In this document: in pieces, positions 1 to 62,189 of the stretch
How the letters are laid out: every line of letters begins with the position of its first letter
Numbering within the stretch: position 1 is the first letter of the stretch
Origin: Actinomycetota bacterium
GTDB lineage: Bacteria; Actinomycetota; UBA4738; HRBIN12
Assembly: GCA_035512775.1 (NCBI GenBank)
Contig: DATKDI010000024.1
Location: forward strand, 18,077-82,076
Length of the DNA stretch: 64,000 bases
Direction of reading: 5' to 3'
Notes under the pieces: generated by a model
Told to the model about the DNA's origin: nothing
Seen by the model: only the letters and a program-made list of their open reading frames with translations
The model's database searches: none
Position numbers and translations under genes: made by a program

Positions 1-153
1 TAGGTTCTTGCTTCGAACAAGGCGAGCTACCCGCAAACGCTGTGCAAGCACTGCACCTCGCCGCATGGAGCACGCGTGGGTCACAATGATCCCTAGCCCT
101 GGACCGTCTTCCAGTCCAGCGATTTCAACGTCATCGAGTACGTCCCCCTGCAT
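1..153 (-). CDS. Hypothetical protein, 5' part only. The ORF starts at ATG 153-151 and runs off the left edge of the window.
   Basis: The minus-strand frame is open from 153 to position 1 with no stop (MQGDVLDDVEIAGLEDGPGLGIIVTHACSMRRG...). No family was recognised. It lies in the lower-GC island at the window start. Confidence 0.2.
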   Translation of the reverse strand, partial: MQGDVLDDVEIAGLEDGPGLGIIVTHACSMRRGAVLAQRLRVARLVRSKNL

Positions 154-243
154 CAAGGGACGGTCGGCGCTGACTTCTGCTCCTCTAGATAAGAAGAGGT
201 CGACTGGTTTCCCGGGGAATTCCAGCCCACGCGTCAAGTTGCT

Positions 244-864
244 TCACCGCTCGCGGGGCCGGGTCACCAACTGCCCGTCATGCCAACGGCTGACCTCAAA
301 GTCTGAGGCATACCGCTCGCGCCAATCGGGCATGCTTTCGTCCAGAACTGCAGTTGCCTCCATCCTGTGGCTTGCCCAGTCCAGCACCAAATCGGTCCGA
401 TCCAGAGCATAGAGATCGCCCGGCGAAATCGGGGCCTCCGAGGAAATTGGCACTTCCATCCAGCTCGCAGGATCGTCGACGAGGTAGTCCTTAGCGAGGA
501 ACTCGACCATGGCCAGAAGCTGGGCAAGCCGCCGACGGTTGGGCCCTGTGGGCGTCTCGCCGTTTCGCCACTTACGCAACGCCGGCACGCTCACACCCAC
601 CATTCGGGCAATGGCACTCCAAGCGAACCCATAACCAGACAGCGCTTCAAGGAGCTCGGTTACAGCCCTCTGAGCGTGGGGAGCGGTTCTGGTGTCCAGG
701 TTATGCAACAGAGCTCGCCTGTGGAGATCCTTTGCGTCATCGCTGAGCATGTTGGATTCGTCGCGAAGTCCCGCCGCTGCCCGCACCAACTGTCGGACGG
801 TAGTCTCGGTGCTGGTGGGCCGTGCCACCTCGGTTGATGTCGACGTGGGAGCCTGGTCGCTCAT
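244..864 (-). CDS. Helix-turn-helix DNA-binding protein (XRE/MerR-like HTH), 206 aa.
   Basis: HTH-like segment WSAIARMVGVSVPALRKWRNGE. Its ATG overlaps the stop of the upstream gene by 4 bp (ATGA coupling at 861-864). Local GC is lower than in the rest of the window. Confidence 0.55.
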   Translation of the reverse strand: MSDQAPTSTSTEVARPTSTETTVRQLVRAAAGLRDESNMLSDDAKDLHRRALLHNLDTRTAPHAQRAVTELLEALSGYGFAWSAIARMVGVSVPALRKWRNGETPTGPNRRRLAQLLAMVEFLAKDYLVDDPASWMEVPISSEAPISPGDLYALDRTDLVLDWASHRMEATAVLDESMPDWRERYASDFEVSRWHDGQLVTRPRER

Positions 865-1694
865 GTGCTCACCACCTTCCTGAGAACGTCATCTCTGAGT
901 TTGTCTGTAATCGCCGCTTCAAACAAGTCTCTGATAGGTCGATGAAGTTGAACGGAGAGGTTCATCAACCAGTCCAAATCCATTCCATTTGTGACCTCAG
1001 CGGCCGCCCAGAAGCTATCGATATCAATGAGAAAGAACGGGCCAGGGGAAGTGCGCTTGGGTACTCGGAGTGGTCCATCCTGATTCACGGCGAAGCCCTC
1101 CATGGCCCCGTATCTCAGGACAACAGACTGATTCTCCTCGGTCGAATAGTTGACAGCACCCTGCCATGATTGGGGAATGAGCTGGGCGGCGTTCACTCCG
1201 AGGGCGATTTGGTCGATCAGAGCGCTCTGGACATAGGGAGTCCACATATTGGGTCCACTTTCTAGAGACGGAACCCTTATCTCGTCGATATAGCGAAGTC
1301 CCACTCGCTCCATACCGACGATAAGCCCCGATTCGGCCAGGACGCCGAACACACGATTCGCCAAAGGGAGGAACGAGGTGAAACTGCGGTATGAGGTGGT
1401 CTCAATTGTTGTGTTGGTCCCCGAGACCGTGGCAACGGTCGTGCGATCCCGGGACGCGAGCTTGAACACAGACCTGATTGGAGGAGTACTCACCGAGGAA
1501 GCCCCTCCGACGGAGAGAACGAACCCCTGTTCCCCGCCCATCTCCGCCACGGGAAGCAGATCGTCCAGGGCCTCGAGAAAAACCGCCAGCTGGTCTTGTG
1601 TGCCCAGCCGCGGCGACAGGGGATAACGCACCTCATGGGCTACGAGCCGGAGAGGGGCGTTGGGATAGACTTCGTGCTCATCCAACGAAACCAC
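861..1694 (-). CDS. Conserved hypothetical protein, 277 aa, with no recognisable catalytic motif. It is the first gene of a two-gene operon with the HTH protein.
   Basis: Long ORF with protein-like composition. It is translationally coupled to the downstream HTH gene. An AT-richer putative promoter region lies at 1695-1885. Confidence 0.5.
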   Translation of the reverse strand: MVSLDEHEVYPNAPLRLVAHEVRYPLSPRLGTQDQLAVFLEALDDLLPVAEMGGEQGFVLSVGGASSVSTPPIRSVFKLASRDRTTVATVSGTNTTIETTSYRSFTSFLPLANRVFGVLAESGLIVGMERVGLRYIDEIRVPSLESGPNMWTPYVQSALIDQIALGVNAAQLIPQSWQGAVNYSTEENQSVVLRYGAMEGFAVNQDGPLRVPKRTSPGPFFLIDIDSFWAAAEVTNGMDLDWLMNLSVQLHRPIRDLFEAAITDKLRDDVLRKVVST

Positions 1695-1885
1695 TACTCA
1701 TACTCCTTCCGAAACCGATTCATGAACCAGATGTTATACTGGTGGGCTCATTTTGTCCATACCGAACTCGGCTCAGTTTCCTGGCTCAGAAATAGCTCCA
1801 CTGCAAGCGATACCCCACGCCGGACCGGTCCACCCCGTCGGCGGCCAAGCTGACGGATGTCTCTGTCGGCTCCTAGGGTCGAGGG

Positions 1886-2596
1886 ATGACGAAGCCGCTG
1901 ATCATCCTCGTTCCTGGGTTCTGGCTCGGTGCGTGGGCGTGGGACGAGGTGACCGACGCGCTTCGCGCGAAAGGCCACGACGTCACCGCGCTGAGGCTTC
2001 CCGGTCTCGAGTCGGCCGATGTCGATCGGTCCTCGATCGGCTTGTCCGACCACGTCGACGCGATATGCGAGGCGATCGAGGCGGCGGGCGGTCCGGTCGT
2101 GCTCGCCGTGCACAGCGGTACCGGATTCTCCGGCTACGTCGCGAGTGATCGGGTCCCGGAACGGATCGCGGCGATGGTGTACGTCGACACCGCCCCGGGC
2201 ATCCCACCCCTCGACCCCGACTTCGAGGGCGCGGAGAAGCCGATGTCGTGGGAGGAGCTCGCGGCGGAGGAGAACCTCGACGGGCTGAGCGAGGAGCAGC
2301 TCGAGACGTTCCGGCAGCGGGCGGTCCCGGAGCCGGGCGGCGTCCTGCGCGACACCGTCGAGCTGACGAACGACGCGCGGCTGGACATCCCGAGCACCCT
2401 CATCTGCACCGGGTACTCGTCCCAGGAGTACAAGGAGGCGATGAACGAGGGCTACGCCTGGCTCGCCGGTCTCAAGGAGGTGCGCAACATCACCTGGGTC
2501 GACCTGCCGACGAGCCACTGGCCGATGTGGTCACGCCCGAAGGAGCTCGCCGAGCTCATCGGCGACGTCGCGAAGGCGCACGCCTCCGACGGCTGA
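1886..2596 (+). CDS. Alpha/beta-fold hydrolase.
   Basis: 236-aa ORF. Nucleophile elbow AVHSGTG (G-x-S-x-G-like). Architecture typical of small esterases/hydrolases. Confidence 0.7.
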   Translation: MTKPLIILVPGFWLGAWAWDEVTDALRAKGHDVTALRLPGLESADVDRSSIGLSDHVDAICEAIEAAGGPVVLAVHSGTGFSGYVASDRVPERIAAMVYVDTAPGIPPLDPDFEGAEKPMSWEELAAEENLDGLSEEQLETFRQRAVPEPGGVLRDTVELTNDARLDIPSTLICTGYSSQEYKEAMNEGYAWLAGLKEVRNITWVDLPTSHWPMWSRPKELAELIGDVAKAHASDG

Positions 2597-2611: not shown

Positions 2612-3352
2612 TCAGGGCGTGTCCGCTCCGGTCGGCTCGGAGCTCCAGCGTCCCTGGAGCCAGCGGCGCTCGTGAGGGCTGCTCATCGGACGCAGAGGGA
2701 AAAGGCTCGGCATGACACGGGGAAGGACACGCTGGATCGAGTTCGCCGCCTGCAGCAGCTGCAACATCTCCACCCCTGGGAGCTCCGGGGCCCACAGGAG
2801 GAGGACCTCGTCGTTCACGTCCGCGACGACGTCGTGCGGGAGTCGAAGGAACCCCTCCATCACGCGTTGATCGAGGAGCGCCGAAGCCGCGCGGGCGTCC
2901 TCGGCCTCCACGCGGAACCGCCGGTTGAACTCCTCGAGCTCGAGGGTGACGAGCGGGAGCCCGATCGCGTCGGCGATCTCGTGCACGAGGTCCCGAGAAG
3001 CGACGCGAAGCCGTGGGGAGGAGAACGGGAGTGGCACCGCTGCGCAGGTGATGGTCCGCCGGAGGCCGGGTCCGCCGTCCTCGCTCTTCTCCCGATACCA
3101 GAAGTCGAAGGCGCGAACGCCACCATCGCGTCGCGGATCCCAGACCACGTTGGAGGTTCCGCTCGGCGTCCGCCCGAACATCTCGAAGGGGAGAAATCCG
3201 GTTCCGGGGAACGTGTCCAGTGGGGCGAACCCGAGACCGGCCACCTCGCAGAGCAGCATCAGCTTCCGCTGCCGGTCGTGACGGCGCCGTACCCGGTACC
3301 AGGCCCAGGCGGCCACCGCCACCAGCACCACCGCCGTCAGCGTCCACCGCAT
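2612..3352 (-). CDS. Membrane-anchored hypothetical protein.
   Basis: 246-aa ORF with an N-terminal hydrophobic helix (LTAVVLVAVAAWAWY). No catalytic motif was recognised. Confidence 0.5.
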   Translation of the reverse strand: MRWTLTAVVLVAVAAWAWYRVRRRHDRQRKLMLLCEVAGLGFAPLDTFPGTGFLPFEMFGRTPSGTSNVVWDPRRDGGVRAFDFWYREKSEDGGPGLRRTITCAAVPLPFSSPRLRVASRDLVHEIADAIGLPLVTLELEEFNRRFRVEAEDARAASALLDQRVMEGFLRLPHDVVADVNDEVLLLWAPELPGVEMLQLLQAANSIQRVLPRVMPSLFPLRPMSSPHERRWLQGRWSSEPTGADTP

Positions 3353-8090: not shown

Positions 8091-9302
8091 CTAACCGACA
8101 AGCAGAGCGCGCGCCTCGTAAGCCTCGATCGGCGAGCTCATCCCCTTCAACCTGACCTCGCCGATGCTCTTGAATCGGAGGTCCTCGCGCTCGCCCGTCA
8201 GCCGGACGACCTCGGCGTCCACCAGCGTCTGGCCGGGGTCCGCCGCCCCGGCGAGACGTGAGGCGAGGTTCACCGTCCGACCGTAGTAGTCGCCGTCCTG
8301 GAAGATCACCGGACCCGCGGCGACACCGGCGTGGGCGGGCGGCAGGCCGACGTCGGCGGTGCGGCGACCGACTTCGATCGTCGCGAGGACGGCCGCGGCG
8401 GGATCGCGGAACGAGAACATCACGCCGTCGCCGAGCCACTTCACCGCCCTGCCGTCGCGGCGCCCGACCTCCTCGTGGACCAGCAGCGCGAGGCGGGCGC
8501 CCAGCTCCGCCGCCGCCTCGTCGCCTCGTTCCTCCGTCAGGCGCGTGTAGCCGGTGAGGTCGAGGAACGCGAACGCGGTCGGCCGCTCGGTGCGTTCGTA
8601 CAGCCCCATCGCTTCGATCGCGCTCTCCATGTGCTGGACGCCGTCGTCGGTCCAGACACGCTCCTGCTGGCGCCGGAAGATCGCCATCACGAGCTCCTCC
8701 CTCTGCAGGTCGAGCTCGGCGCCGATCTCGTTCACGATGCCCAACATCTCGCCGTGACTGCGGCCGGCGTCGAGGAGCGGCATCTCGATGTGTCGATGGA
8801 AGACATCCGCGTCCGTCTCGACGACCCGGCTGAGCGCTTCGGTGAAGACCCGAACGAGCCGCAGCTCCACGTCGGCGCCGACCCCTGCGGCGATCGCCCG
8901 GCGTGGCGCCTCGAGCATCCCCGGGAGGTCCGCCGGCGCGGGATCATCCGGCCCGGGCCGGACCTTCCCCAGGGCCTCCTCGAACGCGAGGACGAACTCG
9001 ATCGGCAGGTCCATCTCGTCCGCCACCTGCCGGTACGTCCGCGCGGACAGCGGCGCCCAGCGGTACTGCGGTTCGTCCAGGAACGCGAAGGAGAAGCGGC
9101 CCTCCTGGATCGAGCGCGCGATCGCGTCGATCGACAGTCCCCCTCGATCGGATGCCCGGACGAACCGCACGCGGTACACGTCCGATCGGAAGAACGCGCC
9201 GTCGTCGCCGGAGCGCAGGATCCCCAACTCGACGAGCCGGGCCACGTAGGACTCGTCGACGCCTGCCTGCTCGGCGAGCTCCTTCGGGTCGCGGGCGGTC
9301 AT
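8091..9302 (-). CDS. Adenylate/guanylate cyclase (class III CHD) protein with an N-terminal HTH-like region.
   Basis: C-terminal cyclase motifs FLDLTGYTRLTEERGDE, KWLGDGVMFSF and YGRTVNLASRLAG. The N-terminus LAEQAGVDESYVARLVELGIL is HTH-like. Confidence 0.75.
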   Translation of the reverse strand: MTARDPKELAEQAGVDESYVARLVELGILRSGDDGAFFRSDVYRVRFVRASDRGGLSIDAIARSIQEGRFSFAFLDEPQYRWAPLSARTYRQVADEMDLPIEFVLAFEEALGKVRPGPDDPAPADLPGMLEAPRRAIAAGVGADVELRLVRVFTEALSRVVETDADVFHRHIEMPLLDAGRSHGEMLGIVNEIGAELDLQREELVMAIFRRQQERVWTDDGVQHMESAIEAMGLYERTERPTAFAFLDLTGYTRLTEERGDEAAAELGARLALLVHEEVGRRDGRAVKWLGDGVMFSFRDPAAAVLATIEVGRRTADVGLPPAHAGVAAGPVIFQDGDYYGRTVNLASRLAGAADPGQTLVDAEVVRLTGEREDLRFKSIGEVRLKGMSSPIEAYEARALLVG

Positions 9303-9379
9303 CGAGGCCGGATGATAGGCCGCACGCGGCCGACGGATGTCCCGACGCACCTCGGGGGTCGGGTGAGAGCCCGGACGAT

Positions 9380-10153
9380 CTACTTCGGGACCGAGGGCGA
9401 CGGCGTCAGCCGCGACATCGTCGCCGGCTCGACGTACGCGATCTCGGCGCCGGGCGAGCGATCGAGGACCGCCTTGGCCCGGGCGTACATCTCGTCCTGC
9501 CGGCGCACGAGCGTCTCCTCCTTCTCCTCGGGATCGTAGGCGCCGGCCACCGCCCAGTGATCCCTGAGCTCCTTCACCGATGAGGCGTGGGTGCGCAGCT
9601 CGAGCCTGCGACGCTCGTCGATCGCGAACACCCCTCGCCCGACGACCGTCGCGACCGCTGCCTCCGCATGCCGGAGGTCGTCCTCGTAGTCGAACCCGGG
9701 ATCGTCCTCCGAGAAGAGCAGCTCCCCGTTCGACCTGATCTCGACGGATGGGACCTCGAGGGCGGGATGGACCTCGATCAGCGATCCGGCTGGCCTTAGC
9801 AACCGGTGGATCTCCTCAAGGGCATGGACCATGCCCTCGTGCTCCATTCAGCAGAGCGACCAGGACAGCAGCGCCACGTCGAAGACGTCGGCGTCGCTGG
9901 CGGCGGCGAATCCCTCGAAGGTGATGTTGCGGAACTCGATCCGCTCGTTCGGCGCTTCCGAGAGCCGCTTCTGCGCCCTCGCGATCGAGTCCGCGAAGGG
10001 CTCGATCGCCGTCACGTGGGCGGCTCGGTCCGCGTAGCGCCACGTGAGGCGGCCGTCGCCGCACCCGATCTCCAGGACCTCGCGTCCCTCCAGCTCGACG
10101 AGTTCGAACAGCGCGTCGGTCTCGTTGCCTTCGGGATCGGTCCGGATGGTCAA
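9380..10153 (-). pseudogene. Class I SAM-dependent methyltransferase interrupted by an in-frame TGA.
   Basis: Motif I LEIGCGDGRLT. The reading frame is ...ALLSWSLC-TGA-MEHEGMVHALEEIHRLLRPAGSL, i.e. post-motif II continuity across a TGA at 9845-9847 (plus-strand tca). Possibly a TGG to TGA change, or a consensus error. Confidence 0.55.
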
Positions 10154-10231
10154 GGCACGACCCTACCGCCCTGAGCTCCGCCCTGGGTTCACCGGTCCGC
10201 GACGACCTCCAGGCGTAGAGTCCAGCCGAGG

Positions 10232-11521
10232 ATGGACGCGGCGAAGTCACGCACAGGAGCGTTCCGGCGGCTCATCGAGATCGGCTCTCAGCCCGAGGAC
10301 GACGAGGCCGAATCGCTTCGGAAGCGGGTTCTTGTCCTCGCGGCGAGCATCATCACCGGGCTCGCGACGGTCTGGGTCGTCAGCTACGCACTGATGGGGC
10401 TATACGTATCGGCGCTGATCCCGTTCACGTACCAGGTCGCCTCCGTCGCGAACCTCGCGGTCTTCGCCAGGACGAAGCGATACCGCCTGTTCAGGTTCAG
10501 CGAGCTCGCCCTCAGCCTGATGTTGCCGTTCCTGCTGCAGCTCAGCCTCGGCGGCTTCTTCCCGTCCAGCGCGGTCGTCCTGTGGTCGTTCACGGCGCCG
10601 CTCGGCGCGCTCCTGTTCGCGGGTCGACGTTCCGCCGCCCGGTGGTTCCTGGCCTTCCTCGGCGTGGTCGCGGCTGCGGCGCTGCTCGATCCGATCGTCC
10701 CCGACCGGACCGCGATGATCCCCGACTGGGTGATCGTCCTGTTCTTCGCCAACAACATCCTGGGAGTGACGGGAACGAGCTACCTGCTGCTCTCGTACTT
10801 CGTCCGCGAGCGCGATCGTGCCGCCGAGACCCTCGCTGCCGAGCGGGAGCGGTCCGAGCGACTGTTGTTGAACGTGTTGCCGGAGCCGATCGCGGCACGG
10901 CTCAAGAGCGGAGAGCCGCTGATCGCCGACGGTATCCCCGAGGTAGGAGTCCTGTTCGCGGACATCGCCGGCTTCACGCCGATGGCGGAACGGATCACGC
11001 CCCACGAGGTGGTCCGGCTGCTCGACCGGATCTTCAGCCGGTTCGACGCTCTCGCGCTCGAGCACGGCCTGGAGAAGATCAAGACGATCGGCGACGCGTA
11101 CATGGTGGCGTCGGGATTGCTCGAACCACGGCGGGACCACGCGGAGGATCTCGCTCGCATGGCGCTGGCGATGCAGGACGAGGTCCGGCGGTTCGACGCG
11201 CTCGAGCTCCGGATCGGCATCGACATCGGGCCGGTCGTCGCGGGCGTGATCGGCCAGCGGAAGTTCAGCTACGACCTGTGGGGCGACACCGTGAACACGG
11301 CGAGCCGGATGGAGTCGCACGGCGTCATCGGGGGCATCCACGTCACCGAGCGCGCCCGGAGGCGGCTCGCCGACGCGTTCGACTTCGAGAGCCGCGGCGT
11401 GATCGACGTCAAGAGCAAGGGACCGATGACGACGTACCTCCTCGTCGGAGCGCGGCCGTCCGGTGACGAGGCGCGCTCGTCCGTCTCGACAGGCGAGCGC
11501 CACCCGGGAACGACCGACTGA
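10232..11521 (+). CDS. Membrane-anchored class III adenylate/guanylate cyclase.
   Basis: About six N-terminal TM helices followed by a CHD domain (VLFADIAGFTPMAE, KTIGDAYMVASGL, WGDTVNTASRMES). Confidence 0.8.
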   Translation: MDAAKSRTGAFRRLIEIGSQPEDDEAESLRKRVLVLAASIITGLATVWVVSYALMGLYVSALIPFTYQVASVANLAVFARTKRYRLFRFSELALSLMLPFLLQLSLGGFFPSSAVVLWSFTAPLGALLFAGRRSAARWFLAFLGVVAAAALLDPIVPDRTAMIPDWVIVLFFANNILGVTGTSYLLLSYFVRERDRAAETLAAERERSERLLLNVLPEPIAARLKSGEPLIADGIPEVGVLFADIAGFTPMAERITPHEVVRLLDRIFSRFDALALEHGLEKIKTIGDAYMVASGLLEPRRDHAEDLARMALAMQDEVRRFDALELRIGIDIGPVVAGVIGQRKFSYDLWGDTVNTASRMESHGVIGGIHVTERARRRLADAFDFESRGVIDVKSKGPMTTYLLVGARPSGDEARSSVSTGERHPGTTD

Positions 11522-11582
11522 GGCGAGATGACCACCTCGGAGCTCGAGCGAACTGCGACCCGGGCTGACCTAGACTCGCCCC

Positions 11583-14500
11583 ATGGCGGTGTGTACCTCC
11601 TGCGGAACCGTCAATGCGTCGGATGCGAGCTACTGCTCGAAGTGCGGCTCGGCGCTCGAGCCGCCCACATCCCCGGCAGAGGAGGTCCGCAAGACCGTCA
11701 CCGTCCTGTTCTGCGACGTCACCGGGTCGACGGAGCTCGGTGAGCAGCTCGACCCGGAGTCGATGCGGAAGGTCATGGGGCGCTACTTCGACGGCATGCG
11801 GGCCGAGATCGAGCGCCACGGTGGCACGGTCGAGAAGTTCATCGGGGACGCGGTGGTGGCCGTGTTCGGGATCCCCACGCTCCACGAGGACGACGCCCTG
11901 CGCGCAGTTCGAGCGGCAGGAGCCATGCGCATCGCGCTCAGAGAGCTCAACAAGGAGCTCGAGCGCGACTTCGGCGTGCGCCTCGCGGCCCGCATCGGGG
12001 TCAACACCGGCGAGGTCCTCGTCGGACCGGAGTCGGCCGAGTTCGGCCGCGTGACCGGGGACCCGGTCAACACCGCGGCTCGGCTCGAAGCCGCGGCGCA
12101 GCCGAACGAGATCCTCATCGGTGGCGACACGTACCGGCTCGTCCGCGAGGTCGTGGAGGCCGAGCCCCTCCAGCCGCTCTCCCTGAAGGGCAAGGCCGAG
12201 CCGGTCCCCGCCTACCGGTTGCTCGGCGCTCCGGTCGGGACCGCGCCGCCGCCACGAGCGTTCACATCCCCGATGGTGGGACGTGAGCGTGAGCTCGACG
12301 ACCTCCTCCGGGCGTTCGAGCGCGCGGTGCAGGATCGCACGGCCCTGCTGTTCACCCTGCTGGGGTCGGCCGGAGCGGGGAAGTCGAGGCTGGCCGAAGA
12401 GTTCCTGGAGCGGGTCGGCGGATCGGCCGAGGTCGTCGTCGGTAAGTGCCTGCCGTATGGCGAAGGGATCACCTACTGGCCGGTGGCGCAGGCCCTCCGG
12501 ACGGTGCTCGACGTCCACGACTTCGACGAGCCGGAGGAGGTCCTGGCTCGTCTGGGGCGCATCCTCGAGGGACACGAGCACGCGAACGCCGTGTCGGCGC
12601 GCATCGCCGAGCTCCTCGGGATCGCCGAAGGCCACGCTTCACCGGAAGAGATCGCGTGGGCCATCCGTCGGTTCCTGGAGATCCTCGCGACCGACCGGGC
12701 GGTGATCGCGGTGTGGGAGGACATCCACTGGGCCGAGCCGGCGTTCCTCGATGCGATCGACCACGTCGCGGACTGGGCCCACGACGCGCCGATCATGCTG
12801 CTGTGCACCGCCCGGCCCGAGTTCATCGACGGGCGGCCCTCATGGGGCGCCGGGAAGCTGAGGGCATCGGCCCTGTCGCTGCCGCCCCTCGACACGGGAA
12901 CGTCCGCGGAGCTGATCACGAACCTCCTCGGCGGCGCTCGGCTGCCACCTGACGCGACCGATCGTGTCATGGAGGCTGGCGGCGGCAATCCGCTCTTCGT
13001 CGAGCAGATGGTCTCGATGCTGATCGACGACGGCCTCGTCGTCCGGAACAACGGCGGATGGAGACCCACCGGCGACCTGTCGACGGTCGCCGTCCCGCCG
13101 ACGGTCGCGGCCCTGCTGGCCGCCCGGCTGGACCGGCTCACGGGAGAGGAGCGGCAGGCGATCGGAGCCGCCTCGGTGATCGGCAAGGTGTTCTATCTCG
13201 GCGCCGTTCGCGACCTCCTCCCCGAGTCGCTTGGCGAGCAGGCCCGACCGCTCGTCCTCTCGCTGGTGCGGAAGGAGCTCGTCCGGGAAACGCGCTCGAC
13301 GATCCCCGGCGAAGACGCCTTCGAGTTCCGACACATCCTGATCCGCGACGCCGCCTACGCCGCGATCCCCAAGGAGCGGCGCGCCGACCAGCACCGCGGG
13401 TTCGCCGAGTGGGGGCTGCGCATCGCCGGCGAGCGGGTCGAGGAGCAGGAGGAGATCGTCGGCTACCACCTCGAGCAGGCCTTCCGGTACCGCGAGGCGT
13501 TGGGGCCGCTCGACGACGACGCCCGGAGCCTCGCGAAGGAGGCGTCGGCCACGCTCGAGGACGCGGGGATGCGCGCGTTCGATCGGCCAGACATGTTCGC
13601 TGCGGCGAACCTCCTCGGCAGGGCGGAGGCACTCCTCGAGCCGGACGATGCCCGGCGGGTCGGGCTCCTGCCTTCGCTCGCGTACGCCCTCTTCGAGACG
13701 GGCCGGCTCGACGAGATACGCGACATGATCGACGAGGCGGAGGCGCGAGCGGGATCGCTCGGCGATCCGACGGCACTCGCGCATGCGTCGATCGCTCGCT
13801 GGTCGCTGGTGGAGGGACCGGCACACCGCCACTCGGCGAGGGAGGACGCGACCGCGGCGGTCCGCGTGTTCGAGTCGGCACGCGACGAGCGCGGGCTCGC
13901 CCGAGCGTGGAACCTGATCGCGAGGATCGAATGGGACCTGGGCCAGGGGGGGCCCCAGCTGCAAGCTATCTCGCGGGCGCTACAGCACGCGCGACGCGCG
14001 TTGGCCGGCTACGAGGAACACGAGGCGCTGCTGGAATTCACGGCGGCGCTCGTCCGCGGGCCGACGCCCGTGTCTGAGGGCATCGCGCGGGCGGAGGCGA
14101 CGATCGAGGAGTACGCGTCCAGCCGCGAGGTGGAGGCGATCATGTGCCACGGGCTGGCTCACCTGCGGGCGCGACTCGGCGGCTTCGACGCGGCGCGCGA
14201 GGCGATCGACCGGTACCGGTCGTACCTGTCCGACACCGGGCAGACCGTCAGTCATCTGCGGTCCGTGGAGGTCGTGTTCGACATCGAGATGCTCGCGGGC
14301 GAGGCCGAGCGCGCGTGCGATGCACTCGAGCGGGCATGGGAGTCGATGGCCGCGATCGGCGATCGATGGCCTTACCTCTCGGCGTTCCTGGGGCAGGGAC
14401 GCTACGCGGTCGGTCGGTACTCGGAGGCCCGGGACGCCGCGGCCTTCGCCGCCGAACACGGCGACGCGATCGAGGGGTCGTTGGGTCTCGGCGTGATGGC

Positions 14501-14750
14501 GAAGGTCGCCGCGAGGGATCGGGACGCCGAGCGAGCCGAGGCGACGATCCGTGAGGCGGTCGAACGCGTGGACCGGACCGACTTCCTGTTCGATCGAGGA
14601 ACGGTCCATGCGGACCGAGGCGAGACGATGCGACTCCTCGGACGCGAGGACGAGGCGGCCCTCGCGTTCGACGAGGCGACCAGGCTCTTCGATCTGAAGG
14701 GTGACCGCGTCTCGGCCGACCGGATCCGCGCCCTTCGCGACGGACGCTAG
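11583..14750 (+). CDS. Large signal-transduction STAND protein: Zn-ribbon, adenylate/guanylate cyclase domain, AAA/NB-ARC-type ATPase and TPR-like repeats.
   Basis: CxxC..CxxC at the N-terminus. CHD motifs VTVLFCDVTGST and KFIGDAVVAVFG. Walker A GSAGAGKS. A long helical repeat C-terminus. 1055 aa. It is a paralogue of 56295-59099. Confidence 0.8.
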   Translation: MAVCTSCGTVNASDASYCSKCGSALEPPTSPAEEVRKTVTVLFCDVTGSTELGEQLDPESMRKVMGRYFDGMRAEIERHGGTVEKFIGDAVVAVFGIPTLHEDDALRAVRAAGAMRIALRELNKELERDFGVRLAARIGVNTGEVLVGPESAEFGRVTGDPVNTAARLEAAAQPNEILIGGDTYRLVREVVEAEPLQPLSLKGKAEPVPAYRLLGAPVGTAPPPRAFTSPMVGRERELDDLLRAFERAVQDRTALLFTLLGSAGAGKSRLAEEFLERVGGSAEVVVGKCLPYGEGITYWPVAQALRTVLDVHDFDEPEEVLARLGRILEGHEHANAVSARIAELLGIAEGHASPEEIAWAIRRFLEILATDRAVIAVWEDIHWAEPAFLDAIDHVADWAHDAPIMLLCTARPEFIDGRPSWGAGKLRASALSLPPLDTGTSAELITNLLGGARLPPDATDRVMEAGGGNPLFVEQMVSMLIDDGLVVRNNGGWRPTGDLSTVAVPPTVAALLAARLDRLTGEERQAIGAASVIGKVFYLGAVRDLLPESLGEQARPLVLSLVRKELVRETRSTIPGEDAFEFRHILIRDAAYAAIPKERRADQHRGFAEWGLRIAGERVEEQEEIVGYHLEQAFRYREALGPLDDDARSLAKEASATLEDAGMRAFDRPDMFAAANLLGRAEALLEPDDARRVGLLPSLAYALFETGRLDEIRDMIDEAEARAGSLGDPTALAHASIARWSLVEGPAHRHSAREDATAAVRVFESARDERGLARAWNLIARIEWDLGQGGPQLQAISRALQHARRALAGYEEHEALLEFTAALVRGPTPVSEGIARAEATIEEYASSREVEAIMCHGLAHLRARLGGFDAAREAIDRYRSYLSDTGQTVSHLRSVEVVFDIEMLAGEAERACDALERAWESMAAIGDRWPYLSAFLGQGRYAVGRYSEARDAAAFAAEHGDAIEGSLGLGVMAKVAARDRDAERAEATIREAVERVDRTDFLFDRGTVHADRGETMRLLGREDEAALAFDEATRLFDLKGDRVSADRIRALRDGR

Positions 14751-23220: not shown

Positions 23221-23248
23221 GCGCCGGAGCGCGTGTCAAATCAGAGCA
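23221..23248 (+). repeat. Intergenic ~28-bp repeat family, copy A.
   Basis: gcgccggagcgcgtgtcaaatcagagca. Confidence 0.5.
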
Positions 23249-24531: not shown

Positions 24532-25009
24532 ATGGCGATGGGGGCGAAGGCTAGGGCCGCGATCGAGGACGGGAATCGCGTGGCGGTGGATCGGCTGCGG
24601 GCATTTGGCGCGCTCTCGGATGAGGAGCTCACCCGGGTGATCGATGCGCCGTGGAGCGCCGCCGCACTATTCGCACATATGGCGTTCTGGGATCGCTTCG
24701 TTCGTCGCCAGGTGGCTGCTCGCCGCCACCACCGGGAGTCGTACACCTCTTCCGATCGACAACGCTGTTCAGGAACTCGTTCAGGCACTGGTCAATGATG
24801 CGTCCCAGCAACAATGGGCCGTCATGCCACCCCGGACCGCCTTCCAGGATTGCCTCGCGGCGGCTGCTGAGATCGATTCCCTGATCGCGTCGCTCGGAGC
24901 GGATGTCGTCTCGGAAGTAATGCGGGCGGGGCGAGAGCGTCTGGTGGACCGTTCGCTCCACCGAGATGAACACCTCAACACACTCGAGACTGCGTTCCCC
25001 CTCTCATAA
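24532..25009 (+). pseudogene. DinB/DUF664-like protein disrupted by a 4-bp tandem duplication.
   Basis: The N-terminal frame (..DEELTRVIDAPWSAAALFAHMAFWDRFV) and the C-terminal frame (ARWLLAATTGS...SLHRDEHLNTLETAF) are joined by removing one ttcg from cTTCGTTCGtcgcc at about 24694-24701. Confidence 0.5.
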
Positions 25010-25064
25010 CGCCTGAGTGGCAACGCCTTAATCGCAGATCCGGTAACCCGCTTCGCGGCGGCGG

Positions 25065-25094
25065 CCGCCGGGGCGCGTGGCCAATTTAGCCTCC
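25065..25094 (+). repeat. Intergenic ~28-bp repeat family, copy C.
   Basis: ccgccggggcgcgtggccaatttagcctcc. Confidence 0.55.
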
Positions 25095-25115
25095 GATAGG
25101 CGTCCACTGACGGTC

Positions 25116-25574
25116 GGTAGTGGGTCAGTTTGAATCTGAGGGGTGATCCTGGGCGTCAGTTTCGAGGAGGTCGCTGGCGCCGGCGACGGTGAGCACCCGG
25201 TGCGCGGCGCGCGACGGGTTGCGGAGGACTAGTGAGCCGCCGTTCTTTGTGAGTCGACCGCGCGCTTGGACAAGCACGTGCAGGCTCGACGAGTCCATGA
25301 AATCGACCTCGGAGAGGTCCAAAACGATGGTCTGCTTGGGACCCATGTGGGGTTCGATGGCGTCTCGCAGCCGTCCCGCGGTCGCCATGTCGATCTCGCC
25401 GCGGACGTGGATGACCGTCGCCTCGTCCGTTGCGTTGACCTCGGTCGAGAAGTCTTCGGCCATCAACCGGAATTTAGTGGCCCTATCGGGCGGGTGGCAA
25501 TTCTCCGTCGGTCCCGGGTGGTGTCTCAGCTCAAGCACGTCAACGGGGGGACTCATTCAAACTGACCCACTACC
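25116..25574. mobile_element. MITE-like mini-element, copy 1. A 459-bp unit carries a STAS-domain gene and is bounded by perfect 19-bp terminal inverted repeats (GGTAGTGGGTCAGTTTGAA / TTCAAACTGACCCACTACC). An 8-bp direct repeat TGACGGTC lies immediately outside both ends.
   Basis: The inverted repeats and flanking direct repeats were read directly from the sequence. A second copy lies at 28412-28866. Confidence 0.45.
25125..25463 (-). CDS. STAS-domain anti-sigma-factor antagonist (SpoIIAA-like).
   Basis: MAEDFSTEVNATDEATVIHVRGEIDMATAGRLRDAI...IVLDLSEVDFMDSSSLHVLV, a canonical STAS fold with the conserved phosphorylatable Ser region. Confidence 0.8.
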   Translation of the reverse strand: MAEDFSTEVNATDEATVIHVRGEIDMATAGRLRDAIEPHMGPKQTIVLDLSEVDFMDSSSLHVLVQARGRLTKNGGSLVLRNPSRAAHRVLTVAGASDLLETDAQDHPSDSN

Positions 25575-25808
25575 TGACGGTCGGGGAGGAAGGCACGCTA
25601 TCGTCCGGACATGCCCACCGACGACCACGCCCTCGTGAACAGAGCCACCTGGGACGAGGACGCGCGAAACTGGGATCCAGCGAGGACGAGCCAGCCCTAC
25701 GTTCCGCTGGAATGGGCGAGGCGATGGCCGAGCGCGGAGGCGTGGAAGGTGCGCAAGCTCCGCTAGCTGGTCCTGGCCCTGGTCGTGCATGTGCAACTGG
25801 CGGCCGAT

Positions 25809-25836
25809 CACGCCGGGGCGCTTGGACTTATTCGCC
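25809..25836 (+). repeat. Intergenic ~28-bp repeat family, copy M.
   Basis: cacgccggggcgcttggacttattcgcc. Confidence 0.5.
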
Positions 25837-25860
25837 ACACCCCAGGACTTGGGCTCCAGG

Positions 25861-26781
25861 CTACAGGGTGCTAGACGCGCTCCGCTCGGGCTCGCTCTCG
25901 GGCACGCGAACGAGGTCCCCCGATCGCGATTCCCCGAGCGTCAGCTCGGCCGTTACCGCGAGCCCCAGGTGCAGGGCCAGCGACGAGAGGAAGGACCACA
26001 GAAGGAGCGCGATGACCGAGAGCAACGACCCGTAGGCGGCGTTGCCGCTCAGTGAGAAGTACAGACCGAGAGCGAGGCTGAACAGGAACCAAAGCGCGAC
26101 CGATGCCGCCGTCCCCGCGGCGAGCGCCGCGCGAGAACCAATGCGTTCTCGCGGCGCCGTTCGAAACAGGAGGTAGATGCCGACAGCGGCCACCGCGACC
26201 CCAAGGGGCCAGCGCACTATGGTCCAGACCGTCAGCGCCGCACCCCCCCAGCCGAGGCCCTCGGAGATCGCCCGGCCGCCGGCGAGCGCGAGCCCCCCGG
26301 CTGCCAGGAGCACCCCCGCGGACAACGAGAGAACGAACGCGACGCCGTAGCGCTTCCCGAATGGTCGATCCTCGGTCCTACCGGCGAGGCGGTTGGCGGA
26401 TCGCTCGACCTGCGCCATCGCCAGCGTGCCCGCTAGCAACGCCGCCAGCAGCCCGAGGACCATCGCGGTCGTCCCTCCGTTGGCGCCCTGACGTGCCGCC
26501 TCTCGAAGCAGCTGGCCCGACGGACCAGGAGAAAGCGTGTCGGCCATCTGCTCGACGATGCCTCGGATCCGCGGCAGATCGAACGCGCTGGCCAGGCCCA
26601 CCAGCCCAATGAAGCCGGAGAGCAGCACGAACATCGACTGGTATGCGAGCGCCCGTACGTGACTCGAGCCGTCGGTCTCCCGGAACCGCTTCAGGGAGAA
26701 TCTCGCGATCTCACCCCCGCCCCGCCGGCGGACCGGTCGCCACGCCGCGCCGAAGCCCCGCTCCTTCCCGGGCGTGTCCAT
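25861..26781 (-). CDS. YihY/BrkB-family membrane protein.
   Basis: HVRALAYQSMFVLLSGFIGLVGL... and six TM helices, typical of the YihY family. Confidence 0.7.
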   Translation of the reverse strand: MDTPGKERGFGAAWRPVRRRGGGEIARFSLKRFRETDGSSHVRALAYQSMFVLLSGFIGLVGLASAFDLPRIRGIVEQMADTLSPGPSGQLLREAARQGANGGTTAMVLGLLAALLAGTLAMAQVERSANRLAGRTEDRPFGKRYGVAFVLSLSAGVLLAAGGLALAGGRAISEGLGWGGAALTVWTIVRWPLGVAVAAVGIYLLFRTAPRERIGSRAALAAGTAASVALWFLFSLALGLYFSLSGNAAYGSLLSVIALLLWSFLSSLALHLGLAVTAELTLGESRSGDLVRVPESEPERSASSTL

Positions 26782-26975
26782 CAGCCGCCGTCGACCATCT
26801 GCGTATCCCTATCGGTCATCCAGTCCTCTTGGAGTCAGTCTCCTTCGAGATATTCCCCTCGTCGAATTGGCAAGAGCAAGCCTACGTGGGCAATGGCCCC
26901 ACGTGCCCCGGGAGGACGTCGGCAATGGAGCCTAGAGGGGGTCAGCGGCTGCGTGGCCTCGTCGCGTGGGCTCCA

Positions 26976-27003
26976 GCGCTGGGACGCGTGGACATTTAGC
27001 CCC
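26976..27003 (+). repeat. Intergenic ~28-bp repeat family, copy N (near-consensus).
   Basis: gcgctgggacgcgtggacatttagcccc. Confidence 0.6.
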
Positions 27004-27031
27004 CCGGCAGGCCCATCCGCCTGGCCTCCGG

Positions 27032-27511
27032 TCAGACAGGAGTGAACGTTACGGTGATCTCAGCGGCGGTGGGCCGGCCGGACGCGTTGCGAACGTGGAG
27101 TGTCCACCCGCCTCCGCGCTGAGCTTCGAGGGCCGGGAACTCCTGGAGGCAAACGATCTGATCGGTCTCCTCGACACAGCCCTCGTCCGTGGTACTGCTT
27201 CTCACTAGATCGAGCCGCTGTCCGTAGGGCGCGAGGAACCAGAGGCTCAGCCTGGCCGAAGGCTTCACCACGAGCCGAACCTCGAACGTGTGGGTCGGCG
27301 GATCGAGCGCCTCCACCAGGTATGCCTGATGCTCTCGGGCATCTAACGCCAGCGTTCGGGTCATGCCGTTCGGCTGCTCGGGAACTCCGGGCACGGAGGA
27401 CTCAGAGACCGTCGGAGAGTGAACGACCTCAGTCCCGGTGCAGGACGTTGCTGCGATGATCGCGACCCAAGCACCAAGTACCCGGTATCGAGTCCTGGGT
27501 TCGAGGAACAC
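27032..27511 (-). CDS. Putative lipoprotein / secreted hypothetical protein.
   Basis: Signal peptide with a lipobox-like AATSCTG. 159 aa. Confidence 0.5.
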   Translation of the reverse strand: MFLEPRTRYRVLGAWVAIIAATSCTGTEVVHSPTVSESSVPGVPEQPNGMTRTLALDAREHQAYLVEALDPPTHTFEVRLVVKPSARLSLWFLAPYGQRLDLVRSSTTDEGCVEETDQIVCLQEFPALEAQRGGGWTLHVRNASGRPTAAEITVTFTPV

Positions 27512-27571
27512 GCTCCGTAACCTCTCCCGTTGGAGGGTAGTCGCGTTCTGATACGCGAGGGCGGCCCTCGG

Positions 27572-27599
27572 GTGCCGGGGCGCGTGGCCTTTACACCTA
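27572..27599 (+). repeat. Intergenic ~28-bp repeat family, copy D.
   Basis: gtgccggggcgcgtggcctttacaccta. Confidence 0.55.
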
Positions 27600-27665
27600 G
27601 GCTAGAGGTATCGCGCTGAGCGATCCTCAGGCCTCCTGGCTCGACCTTCCGCCGAGTACCGGCCT

Positions 27666-28232
27666 CTACAGCTTCACCTGATCCCGCCCAGCGCCGGCGC
27701 CCGAAACCTCTTGTGAGACGGATGGCCGTTGGACCCTTCGTATCTCACCCAACCCGACGATGACGAGCCCGACTGCAATGAGGAGCACCGACACTTGGAA
27801 CGCGACGCGAAGGCCGTCGCTCAGCTCGGGAGCGTCTTCCATACCGACCCTCGCGCCAAGGACATATGTCGCGAGGAGCACCACGGAGCCTGCCGTCGCG
27901 ACGACGGCCCCAATCCTGTCTCGTCCGGCCAACACGAGACCGATCACGAAGATCCCGAAGCCCACAGGAATCAGCGGGAAAACGGCAAGCAGCCCGGCAA
28001 TCGCCACCGCAGCCCCCGCCCTGGTCACCCAAGAGCCGACGATCGGTTGTGTGACGTAGCGTGCCGTCAGGACGAGTCCGATCGAGAGCAGCACCATCGA
28101 CATGCCGTGCACCGCGAGCGCCACGGGCCAGGGGATGGCGTCATTGACGGATGTAGGAGCGGCGCCCCAGAAGATCAAGAACGCGAATGACCCCAGGACA
28201 AGGGACCACCCACCAATCCCGTATCCCTTCAT
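27666..28232 (-). CDS. Polytopic membrane protein (hypothetical).
   Basis: About six TM helices. 188 aa. Confidence 0.5.
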   Translation of the reverse strand: MKGYGIGGWSLVLGSFAFLIFWGAAPTSVNDAIPWPVALAVHGMSMVLLSIGLVLTARYVTQPIVGSWVTRAGAAVAIAGLLAVFPLIPVGFGIFVIGLVLAGRDRIGAVVATAGSVVLLATYVLGARVGMEDAPELSDGLRVAFQVSVLLIAVGLVIVGLGEIRRVQRPSVSQEVSGAGAGRDQVKL

Positions 28233-28346
28233 CCGGCGAGCGTAGCAGTACGACGTTCCGTAACTTCAGAGCGGCGCATTGAGGCGCCTCGCTACCGCGG
28301 ACCTTGCCGACGATAATCCGGTCCGGCCGCGTCGCGGGCCCCGCAC

Positions 28347-28374
28347 GCGCCGGAGCGCGTGACCCATTACAACT
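28347..28374 (+). repeat. Intergenic ~28-bp repeat family, copy E.
   Basis: gcgccggagcgcgtgacccattacaact. Confidence 0.5.
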
Positions 28375-28411
28375 TATTCAGCCGCGCCCCCGCAAGCCCG
28401 ACAGCTCCGTC

Positions 28412-28866
28412 GGTAGTGGCTCAGTAATCTGAGGGGTGATCCTGGGCGTCAATTTCGAGGAGGTCGTTGGCGCCGGAGACGCTGAGCACCCGGTGCGCGG
28501 CGCGCGACGGGTTGCGGAGGATCAGTGAGCCGCCGTTCTTTGTGAGTTCACCGCGCGCTTGCACAAGCACGTGCAGGCTCGACGAGTCCATGAACTCGAC
28601 CCCGGAGAGGTCCAAAACGATGGTCTGCTTGGGACCCATGTGGGGTTCGATGGCGTCTCGCAGCCGTCCCGCGGTCGCCATGTCAATCTCGCCGCGGACG
28701 TGGATGACCGTCGCCTCGTCCGTTGCGTTGACCTCGGTCGAGAAGTTTTCGGCCATCACCGGAATTTAGTGGCCCTATCGGGCGGGTGGCAATTCTCCGT
28801 CGGTCCCGGGTGGTGTCTCAGCTCAAGCACGTCAACGGGGGGACTCATTCAAACTGACCCACTACC
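28412..28866. mobile_element. MITE-like STAS mini-element, copy 2.
   Basis: Same right arm TTCAAACTGACCCACTACC. The left arm is GGTAGTGGCTCAGTAATCTGA, with a 4-bp deletion. The internal approximately 100-bp upstream region is identical to copy 1. Confidence 0.45.
28421..28756 (-). CDS. STAS-domain anti-sigma-factor antagonist, paralogue of 25125-25463.
   Basis: MAENFSTEVNATDEATVIHVRGEIDMATAGRLRDAIEPHMGPKQTIVLDLSGVEFMDSSSLHVLVQARG, about 92% identical to copy 1. Confidence 0.8.
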   Translation of the reverse strand: MAENFSTEVNATDEATVIHVRGEIDMATAGRLRDAIEPHMGPKQTIVLDLSGVEFMDSSSLHVLVQARGELTKNGGSLILRNPSRAAHRVLSVSGANDLLEIDAQDHPSDY

Positions 28867-28916
28867 CAACTCGTCAGCCACCGCTTAGGCAAGCGCTTCC
28901 AGGACCCGGCAAGATT

Positions 28917-28948
28917 GCCCCGGGGCATCGGCGCGGATTTAGTGTCGC
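28917..28948 (+). repeat. Intergenic repeat family, degenerate copy.
   Basis: gccccggggcatcggcgcggatttagtgtcgc. Confidence 0.35.
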
Positions 28949-29184
28949 CTGTCCTCCGGCGGGTTCGGGTCGCGTCCGGGTGGCACGGTATCCTTGTCAC
29001 GGATGCGCCCATCCTGTCCGTGAATCACGACTTCTCCGCCGCCTGCGTTGCCAACGATCTCCTTCGCTCGGCGCTCGGCCTGTGCCTGGGTCTCGTGATG
29101 CGACGACGCGCGGTCAGCCTTCGGCGCCTTCACGTCCCACCCGCCTTCAGGGTTCTTCACGACGTGTCGATCCTTCTCGCCCAT
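28939..29184 (-). CDS. DUF2188-domain small protein.
   Basis: MGEKDRHVVKNPEGGWDVKAPKADRASSHHETQAQAERRAKEIVGNAGGGEVVIHGQDGRIRDKDTVPPGRDPNPP, a typical DUF2188 sequence. Confidence 0.65.
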   Translation of the reverse strand: MGEKDRHVVKNPEGGWDVKAPKADRASSHHETQAQAERRAKEIVGNAGGGEVVIHGQDGRIRDKDTVPPGRDPNPPEDRRH

Positions 29185-29198
29185 TCCTCTACTCCTGC

Positions 29199-29246
29199 TC
29201 CCGGATCTGTTGCCCGGCTGACTCCCGGATCTGTTGCCCGGCTGAG
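29199..29246. repeat. Perfect 24-bp tandem direct repeat (TCCCGGATCTGTTGCCCGGCTGAC x2), 15 bp upstream of the DUF2188 start.
   Basis: Read directly from the sequence. Possible regulator-binding direct repeats. Confidence 0.6.
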
Positions 29247-55656: not shown

Positions 55657-56230
55657 TCACGGCGTGAGGGGCGGAACGCGCCTCCCAGCGGCGGAGTCCT
55701 CGACCAACGTTGCGAAGCGCCGTTCGCGCGTCTCTTCCTTCTTCCCGGTCATCACCCAGCGGATCGCGGCCTGCCGATAGGACTTCGGCATCGCTTCGAA
55801 CGAGGCCCACGCCTTCTTCTTCGCGCGGAAGCGCTTCTCGAACGCCGGATCGAACACGGCCTTGTCGCGCTGCTCATAGGAGTAGATCCCTGAGCGGCCC
55901 TCGCGCCGTGCCTCGAACGCCTTCAGACCGGCAGGATGCATGCGGTCGGCTTCCGTGAGAGCGGCGACGCGCCCGATGTTCACCGCGCTCCAGTTGCTCC
56001 CGACCCGTCGGGGCGTGAACCCGTTCATGTACCGCTCGGCGTCGATGCTCTTGCGGATGCCGTCGATCCAGCCGAAGCAGAGCGCCTCGTCCACCGACTC
56101 CAGCCACGTCATGCTGGGCTTGCCAGACGCCTTCTTGTAGTAGACGACCCACAGGCTCTGGCTCGCTGTCGTGGTATCGCTCCAGCCACGCGCGGAAGTC
56201 CTCCGGGCGTCGGAACGTTGTGGGTTCCAT
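55657..56230 (-). pseudogene. YdeI/OmpD-associated (DUF1801-type) protein with a +1 frameshift.
   Basis: N-terminus MEPTTFRRPEDFRAWLERYHDSEPE. The other frame reads LWVVYYKKASGKPSMTWLESVDEALCFGWIDGIRKS... An extra C sits in gagCctgtgg at about 56155. Confidence 0.5.
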
Positions 56231-56294
56231 GACGATCGAGTCCCCCATCGGAGTGACACCGTTGGGGTCGGCGGCCGCCCCTATGCTGACCGCC

Positions 56295-61452: not shown

Positions 61453-61506
61453 CGGGCTCCTTGCGGTTCGCTTGCACTTGCGTTCTGCTTGCGGTACGCT
61501 CCCCGC

Positions 61507-62187: not shown

Positions 62188-62189
62188 TC

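Follow-up and report, generated by a model that had tools for sequence, protein, structure and literature searches.

This analysis concerns a 64,000-nt stretch of DNA (the window) from an uncultured actinomycete (Actinomycetota bacterium, assembly GCA_035512775.1, contig DATKDI010000024.1, positions 18,077 to 82,076 of the forward strand). In this stretch a short element with inverted terminal repeats, here called the STAS cassette, carries a gene for a STAS-domain anti-sigma-factor antagonist. The DNA ligase of the host finds its best match at 92%. The cassette is present in two copies, both of which lie in gene-poor units of an array of small genes punctuated by a repeated motif.

The two copies and their passenger gene

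Reading through positions 24800-29200, together with a repeat finder and a mismatch-tolerant search, confirmed the two copies that a preliminary description of this DNA had placed at 25116-25574 (copy 1) and 28412-28866 (copy 2). Copy 1 is intact and measures 459 bp. Its left arm, on the gene-3´ side, occupies 25116-25135 and reads GGTAGTGGGTCAGTTTGAA(T); the right arm, on the promoter side at 25555-25574, is its exact reverse complement, and 419 nt lie between the arms. The perfect 19-bp inverted ends that had been reported thus occupy 25116-25134 (plus strand) and 25556-25574 (minus strand). The 20-mer arm occurs three times in the 64 kb when up to 3 mismatches are allowed, and shuffled sequences are expected to contain none. 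Directly outside the two arms, at 25108-25115 and 25575-25582, the 8-bp direct repeat TGACGGTC was read, as the preliminary description had stated; 8 bp is the norm for target-site duplications in this repeat family, and a flank match of this length has a chance of ~1/65,536 for one given pair.

Copy 2 (455 bp) retains a perfect right arm at 28848-28866 (minus strand). Its left arm at 28412-28426 (plus strand) is degenerate and reads GGTAGTGGCTCAGT----AAT. The 4-bp deletion and the lack of a target-site duplication had both been noted before and were borne out; the G>C change at position 9 of this arm had gone unmentioned. The sequences that flank copy 2, GCTCCGTC and CAACTCGT, do not match. 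A decayed duplication of 9-10 bp (CAGCTCCGTC versus CAACTCGTC) was considered at this copy and is too weak for a claim. The notion that copy 2 is a recombinant of two lineages was also rejected as unsupported; in each half it is closest to copy 1, and the 3´ half varies more across the family.

The boundaries of the duplicated sequence were defined by pairwise alignment of the two copies, each taken with 75 nt of sequence beyond either end. The likeness ends exactly at the right arm, and on the left side just 3 nt (GTC) are common beyond the arm. An extension of the duplication well beyond the inverted repeats, which the preliminary description had named as grounds for discarding its reading, is thus not observed.

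Both copies hold the STAS gene on the minus strand. In copy 1 the open reading frame (ORF) spans 25125-25463 and encodes 112 amino acids (MAEDF...PSDSN*), which match the Pfam STAS family (E=3.7e-22, 78.5 bits) and the NCBIfam model ant_ant_sig (TIGR00377) with 81.8 bits against a cutoff of 53.45. Ser58 in the sequence FMDSSSL aligns with YMDSTGL of RsbV (6m36) and FMDSSGL of SpoIIAA (1th8). The ORF of copy 2 (28421-28756, 111 amino acids) is 96% identical to that of copy 1 and now ends in ...PSDY* through the arm deletion. In copy 1, the stop codon (TGA; TCA on the plus strand, 25125-25127) and the last three codons (D-S-N) fall inside the left arm. The arms were previously said to enclose the gene; each copy does contain the ORF, and strict enclosure fails at this end. 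A longer frame of 143 amino acids, which starts in the right arm, was rejected. It is intact in copy 1 alone, copy 2 having a 1-nt indel that disrupts it, and the homologues have 112 amino acids; the ATG at 25463 is therefore taken as the start.

The 109 nt upstream of the ORF are identical between the copies apart from a 1-nt indel beside the ATG, which agrees with the identical region of approximately 100 bp described earlier. This block contains a promoter-like site, TTGCCA-N18-TAAATT, at 25500-25471 in copy 1 (minus strand), which ends 7 nt before the ATG and is the only such match in the surrounding 1 kb, where 0.1 is expected. STAS loci without the upstream arm conserve the same stretch, and the same sequence is found at 28763-28792 (minus strand) in copy 2, inside the part of the block that is 100% identical between the copies. 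The spacing of 7 nt between the -10 hexamer and the ATG suggests a leaderless transcript. No terminator-like site was found at the element. The ratio of nonsynonymous to synonymous substitution rates (dN/dS) across the STAS family is ~0.31 (105 pairs), which indicates that the passenger is a working gene. Between copy 1 and copy 2, 9 non-synonymous and 3 synonymous codon changes give a dN/dS of ~1.1; together with the damaged arm, this value suggests that copy 2 is decaying.

From these features the passenger would be a self-contained expression unit that combines a sigma-70-like promoter, an ATG start and an antagonist of the SpoIIAA/RsbV type with a phosphorylatable serine. Such a protein could add an extra antagonist to the partner-switching network of the host, titrate an anti-sigma kinase and thereby shift sigma-factor activity. 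It shares the STAS fold signature and the MDSS phospho-serine motif with SpoIIAA and RsbV. In contrast to these proteins, it is encoded on a transposable cassette, next to which there is no gene for a cognate kinase, phosphatase or sigma factor. The nearest sigma-factor gene, of the extracytoplasmic function type, lies 10 kb away, and no HATPase-type kinase was detected among the window ORFs that were scanned; a partner may lie in another part of the genome.

Terminal repeats shared with IS1-family elements

The 19-mer GGTAGTGGGTCAGTTTGAA was searched for exactly, with one genome per species. It was found in at least 119 genome loci (L005-L123), in addition to one plasmid locus (L156), in Acidobacteriota, Alpha-, Gamma- and Deltaproteobacteria, Actinomycetota, Planctomycetota, Chloroflexota, Gemmatimonadota, Nitrospirota, Verrucomicrobiota and other groups. 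Conservation at these loci covers exactly 19 bp and extends no further inward or outward. When inward-facing arms with up to 3 mismatches were paired, 55 pairs with spans of 32 bp to 4.6 kb were obtained among the matches listed. A perfect 8-bp duplication flanks 20 of the 55 pairs, a further 9 match at 7 of 8 positions, and a few duplications appear to have 7 or 9 bp. The 20 perfect duplications reveal no obvious target-site consensus.

A full-length transposase ORF of 277 amino acids is present in at least 15 of the 19-mer loci and lies between or next to the arms in those that were checked. Autonomous relatives that carry the identical arm, a search for which the preliminary description had proposed, therefore occur in many genomes. 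The transposase reaches 28.4 bits with the Pfam family DDE_Tnp_IS1 (cutoff 24.1), over ~40 residues only, and 50.8 bits (E=2e-13) with the NCBIfam model transpos_IS1, below the model cutoff of 100. Its homologues number more than 8000, are named 'IS1 family transposase' by NCBI and JGI, and are in many cases from Solirubrobacterales, that is, from the phylum of the host. We regard this protein, from these matches and names, as a distant but consistent member of the IS1 family. The transposases at the 19-mer loci are just 58-73% identical to the copy in a Nitrospira locus (L089), even though the 19-bp repeat is invariant. The classical insA/insB arrangement with a programmed -1 frameshift is not found; the single ORF of 277 amino acids presumably places the lineage in the single-ORF IS1 subgroup of the ISfinder classification. 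The arm end GGTAGTG fits the GGnnnTG motif, which is common to the ends of IS1-family elements and is also found in the IS6/IS26 family (PMC6807381). Among cultured bacteria, the transposase is carried on plasmids of Mesorhizobium loti, Hoeflea and Acidiphilium. The element on plasmid p_1 of M. loti 582 (CP050295.1, L156) measures 3370 bp and has perfect 19-bp repeats, an 8-bp duplication (CGCTGGTG) and three extra genes. Neither the exact repeat sequence nor the name ISMhu11 was found in any searchable paper.

The arm pairs fall into several size classes, namely micro-elements of 32 bp and 68 bp, MITEs, or miniature inverted-repeat transposable elements, of 100-300 bp, gene cassettes of 0.4-2 kb, and elements of 1.5-4.6 kb with transposase and cargo. 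MITEs of 32-300 bp are frequent in this repeat family. Other transposase-less gene cassettes are frequent as well, with cargo that includes SnoaL-like, methyltransferase and ChaN-like genes and a three-gene unit of FMN reductase, MerR and DUF4440.

At some loci, elements of this family abut end to end, with outer repeat ends 7-8 bp apart (L051, 1917-1962; L123, 5859-5904; L093, 4345-4390; L025, 1835-1879). These could be insertions beside an existing end or junctions that resemble tandem dimers.

The STAS protein itself has more than 400 close homologues (70-94% identity, nearly all of 112 amino acids) in Actinomycetota metagenome bins, mostly on short contigs. The invariant ends of the insertion sequences (ISs) explain why STAS genes sit on short, broken metagenome contigs. 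Every STAS locus that was fetched has the gene-3´ arm, and homology ends right after ...CTACC. The further copies that the preliminary description had suggested looking for were found in soil metagenomes, where the cassette with both arms occupies sites with unrelated flanks at five loci. A lack of other copies or empty sites anywhere, the second of its grounds for discarding the reading, is thus not borne out. One of these (L124) encodes a protein of 98% identity between perfect arms, with no duplication. L127 has both arms and a 9-bp duplication (TACTTCCTC); L129 has both arms, an 8-bp duplication (CGCCGCCG) and an internal deletion; L128 and L130 have both arms and no duplication. The array motif was not found beside any of the cassettes outside the window, and no transposase gene lies within 3-4 kb of any STAS locus.

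In L125 (~1400-1527) and L126 (~2870-3000), two loci in which the STAS gene has the gene-3´ arm only, the upstream sequences have a conserved coding end in common (...GAGCGGATC...CTGT.CGGGTGGCC...). This likeness suggests a fixed, syntenic chromosomal STAS copy that lost its upstream arm.

Classification, origin and competing explanations

Taken together, these observations make it highly probable that the element is a mobile insertion cassette (MIC), that is, a transposase-less derivative of a single-ORF IS or transporter IS of the IS1 family that has kept the 19-bp repeats and one passenger gene. Copy 1 has at both ends the 19-mer that bounds IS1-family transposase elements, its 459 bp hold the STAS ORF alone, with no transposase, and the passenger is unrelated to transposition. 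The target duplication of copy 1 has the length typical of the family, and copy 2 has none. Independent insertions of the same cassette with duplications are represented by L127 and L129. The duplication length of 8-9 bp expected for IS1 elements is that of the parent lineage, in the 20 perfect 8-mers among the 55 pairs and in the M. loti element. The term 'MITE-like, non-autonomous element with a passenger' had been applied to the cassette before; the non-autonomous state and the passenger hold, and the MITE label does not, because the element carries a gene and is thus a MIC. With its intact ends, copy 1 looks competent to move. Copy 2 is probably immobilised: one of its arms is damaged, its ORF is drifting and a duplication is missing.

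The concepts of the MIC, the MITE, the solo repeat and the transporter IS are established (PMC3129680; PMC9330008), as is the mobilisation in trans of MICs, MITEs and solo repeats (PMC3129680). The STAS cassette belongs to this established class of elements, and what is new is this member. In common with MICs it has IS-type repeats around the passenger, no transposase and a target duplication, and a cognate IS is presumed to mobilise it in trans. It differs in that its passenger gene has a promoter of its own and encodes a regulatory STAS protein, and the ORF ends inside the repeat at the stop of the transposase. We take the IS231-derived MIC231 of Bacillus cereus to be an example of a MIC; the parent of the STAS cassette is an IS1 element, whereas that of MIC231 is of the IS4/IS231 type. 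The single-ORF and transporter ISs of the IS1 family (in M. loti, L156; in Nitrospira, L089; in Solirubrobacterales, L098) share with the cassette the GGTAGTGGGTCAGTTTGAA repeat, the 8-bp duplication and a repeat-side ORF that stops at a TGA inside the repeat. In contrast, they encode the 277-residue transposase, which the cassette has lost, and often carry extra cargo. This lineage differs from the classical IS1 of Escherichia coli, as the single ORF implies, in having no insA/insB frameshift arrangement. MITEs are likewise non-autonomous, with IS-type repeats and a flanking duplication, but they are non-coding by definition, whereas the 459-bp STAS element contains an ORF of 112 amino acids under purifying selection. 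Integron gene cassettes are also small single-gene mobile units, set among unrelated small genes in an array that repeats punctuate; the STAS element, in contrast, is bounded by inverted repeats and a duplication rather than attC, the array repeat around it is a motif of roughly 30 nt that forms no extended hairpin, and no integrase is nearby.

Movement of the cassette would require an IS1-family DDE transposase, supplied by an autonomous copy elsewhere in the genome, to bind both repeats. A staggered 8-bp cut of the target would then yield the TGACGGTC duplication at copy 1. The gene end offers a clue to the origin of the cassette. In autonomous relatives (L089, L056, L013, L058, L060, L123), the transposase ORF ends in ...SN* at a TGA within TTCAAACTGACCC. 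The STAS ORF ends in ...PSDSN* at the transposase's own TGA and in the same frame, which argues that the cassette arose by fusion of a STAS ORF to the last transposase codons. The gene lies on the inner side of its 3´ arm; for a resident gene beside which an IS had inserted later, the outer side would be expected. On the simplest reading, the STAS gene would have been cargo of a transporter IS whose transposase gene was replaced, through deletion or recombination within the element, except for its last codons and the repeat. Internal rearrangement of a cargo-carrying IS is, judged from this junction, the most likely origin.

Several observations weigh against classification as a MIC. No autonomous partner was found in the 64 kb from which the host genome is known here: a tblastn search with the IS1-family transposase detected no cognate transposase in the window, and Pfam scans of the sizeable window ORFs detected no other transposase or recombinase domain. 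The transposase of the relatives matches the IS1 models weakly, with an NCBIfam score under the cutoff. Target duplications are missing at copy 2, L124, L128 and L130; adjacent deletion by IS1 or intramolecular replicative events would explain this. In seven loci (L002-L004, L125, L126, L131, L132) no upstream arm lies within 4 kb. Such one-armed loci look like immobilised, one-ended remnants; they represent about half of the close STAS homologues, which argues that many family members are fixed genes and not mobile units. The empty site predicted for copy 1 (...GGCGTCCAC-TGACGGTC-GGGGAGGAAGG..., also given as GATAGGCGTCCAC-TGACGGTC-GGGGAGGAAGGCACGC), whose counterpart in related strains the preliminary description had proposed for comparison, was not found by exact-protein look-ups for the flanking genes. 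These look-ups gave just filled sites of the same or near-identical strains (L001, L151, L155; of these, L001 and L155 are the copy 1 site) or different neighbouring units (L150, L152-L154), and the flank ORFs of 121 and 51 amino acids had zero matches. The sequencing runs SRR8556377 and SRR24833397 contain the strain of the window. The regulatory effect of the passenger is one that we infer entirely.

Part of this evidence would also fit a gene that is mobile no longer. If both copies were fossils, and the STAS protein an ordinary, vertically inherited paralogous regulator beside non-functional repeats, then the missing transposase in the window, the damaged arm of copy 2, the dN/dS of ~1.1 between the copies and the loss of the upstream arm in many homologues would follow, and family-wide purifying selection is what a domesticated gene would show. 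We consider this very unlikely, as copy 1 retains two perfect 19-bp repeats and an undecayed duplication, L124 carries a cassette of 98% identity with perfect arms at a different site, and related soil Actinomycetota are very rich in cognate transposases. A simple duplication, segmental or paralogous, with the palindromic flanks as a regulatory or terminator structure, would agree with two similar copies 3.3 kb apart and with an arm that overlaps the 3´ end of the gene, a possible place for a terminator. This reading conflicts with arms that stand 419 nt apart and have the same sequence as the ends of elements that encode a transposase in many phyla, with the 8-bp direct repeat at copy 1 and with the lack of a terminator-like site. 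The likeness of the copies stops at the right arm and 3 nt beyond the left arm, which excludes a segmental duplication, and the reading as a whole retains a vanishingly small probability.

The remaining alternative takes the surrounding array as the mobile agent, so that the STAS units would be array cassettes that recombination at the array motif had moved or duplicated, and the inverted arms would be relics. Both copies do lie inside the 10-kb array, whose units shuffle at the motif in other samples (see below); the unit that contains copy 2 is nearly all element, as the remaining sequence between its two motif cores comes to ~104 bp, and copy 2 has no target duplication. However, the likeness of the copies stops at the arms and not at the motifs, copy 1 has an exact 8-bp duplication at its arm ends, and at other sites the same cassette has arms and duplications and lacks the array motif. 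We therefore judge this alternative highly improbable and retain the MIC as the explanation of the element.

MICs are rarely recorded in genome annotation. In the STAS cassette, the gene that IS ends carry between sites and genomes has a regulatory role and not one in resistance or metabolism, and no paper was found that links anti-sigma antagonists with MITEs or MICs. Each insertion would add or remove one antagonist of the sigma-factor partner-switching circuit of the host. More generally, an IS1-family lineage with invariant 19-bp ends across many phyla yields elements that range from 32-bp MITEs to 4.6-kb cargo carriers, and the invariant end is a useful key for annotation.

The repeat array and other features of the window

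In the array, GCGCCGGGGCGCGTGGAC(A)TTTAG is repeated ~14 times on the same strand between 23221 and 33291. Every copy is close to the 3´ end of a small gene, and these genes are unrelated and point either way. The motif cores are at 23221, 24412, 25065, 25810, 26976, 27572, 28347, ~28922, 29381, 30076, 30981, 31315, 32252, 32503 and 33276. The genes between the motifs encode APH, BrkB, DUF2188, two methyltransferases, SnoaL and other proteins. One unit, 27566-28369, contains the gene for a membrane protein of 188 amino acids and was found in Logan contigs of four other sequencing runs (L150, L152-L154) at 98-99% identity and with different neighbours. On either side its homology to these contigs ends within the motif core, so that the array units behave like cassettes shuffled at the motif.

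An integron was considered for this array and rejected, as a second conserved box, an extended hairpin, an integrase and an Rfam match are all missing. The repeat has ~35 conserved nucleotides and a hairpin of 5-7 bp, whereas an attC site would need an imperfect hairpin of ~60-140 nt with R´´/R´ boxes (GTTRRRY). Windows of 90 nt at 12 array sites fold no better than shuffled sequences, with z-scores from -2.05 to +1.8 that are mostly near zero or positive. No IntI tyrosine recombinase or integrase domain was detected in the sizeable window ORFs that were scanned, and the repeat has no match in Rfam. Complete integrons are reported to be lacking in Actinobacteria (PMC9024848). A cassette system in Actinomycetota would be unusual, and the array may be a more novel object than the STAS element.

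The insertion of the two cassettes into two array units, as put forward in the preliminary description, is a correct account of this locus; the link to the array repeat does not extend to the cassettes elsewhere. Since those are unlinked to the motif, the array more probably acts as a landing zone that permits insertion than as a specific target. A more far-reaching picture, which we regard as unlikely, is that the STAS cassette is a horizontally spreading 'plug-in regulator' that rewires partner switching, and that the array is an undescribed shuffling system, independent of attC and integrase, that could serve as a landing pad for such units in Actinomycetota, a phylum essentially devoid of integrons. 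If the plug-in part were true, an IS1-derived unit with its own leaderless promoter would multiply in soil Actinomycetota through extra antagonist copies that rewire the stress response.

Two further features were observed in the array. An ORF of 51 amino acids (MPTDDHALVNRATWDEDARNW...KVRKLR; 25610-25765, plus strand) lies just to the right of copy 1 and fills the rest of that unit; it looks like the remnant of an internally deleted methyltransferase gene. At 29198-29245, either upstream of the DUF2188 ORF region or in its 5´ part, the 24-bp sequence CTCCCGGATCTGTTGCCCGGCTGA is repeated twice in a perfect tandem duplication.

Outside the array, the first 2000 nt of the window (1-2000) have a G+C content of 0.59, compared with ~0.68 elsewhere, and contain two minus-strand ORFs without a Pfam match (244-864 and 861-1694); this part may be foreign DNA at the window edge. 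At 61489-62720 on the plus strand, an ORF with a helix-turn-helix/Cro-like domain is followed by an ORF with a RES domain, and the pair looks, from these domains, like an Xre-RES toxin-antitoxin system. The window is also unusually rich in cyclases, with at least four adenylate/guanylate cyclase-domain genes at 8091-14750 and 56220-59099, among which two encode large cyclase-AAA ATPase proteins, one of these with an additional TPR region.

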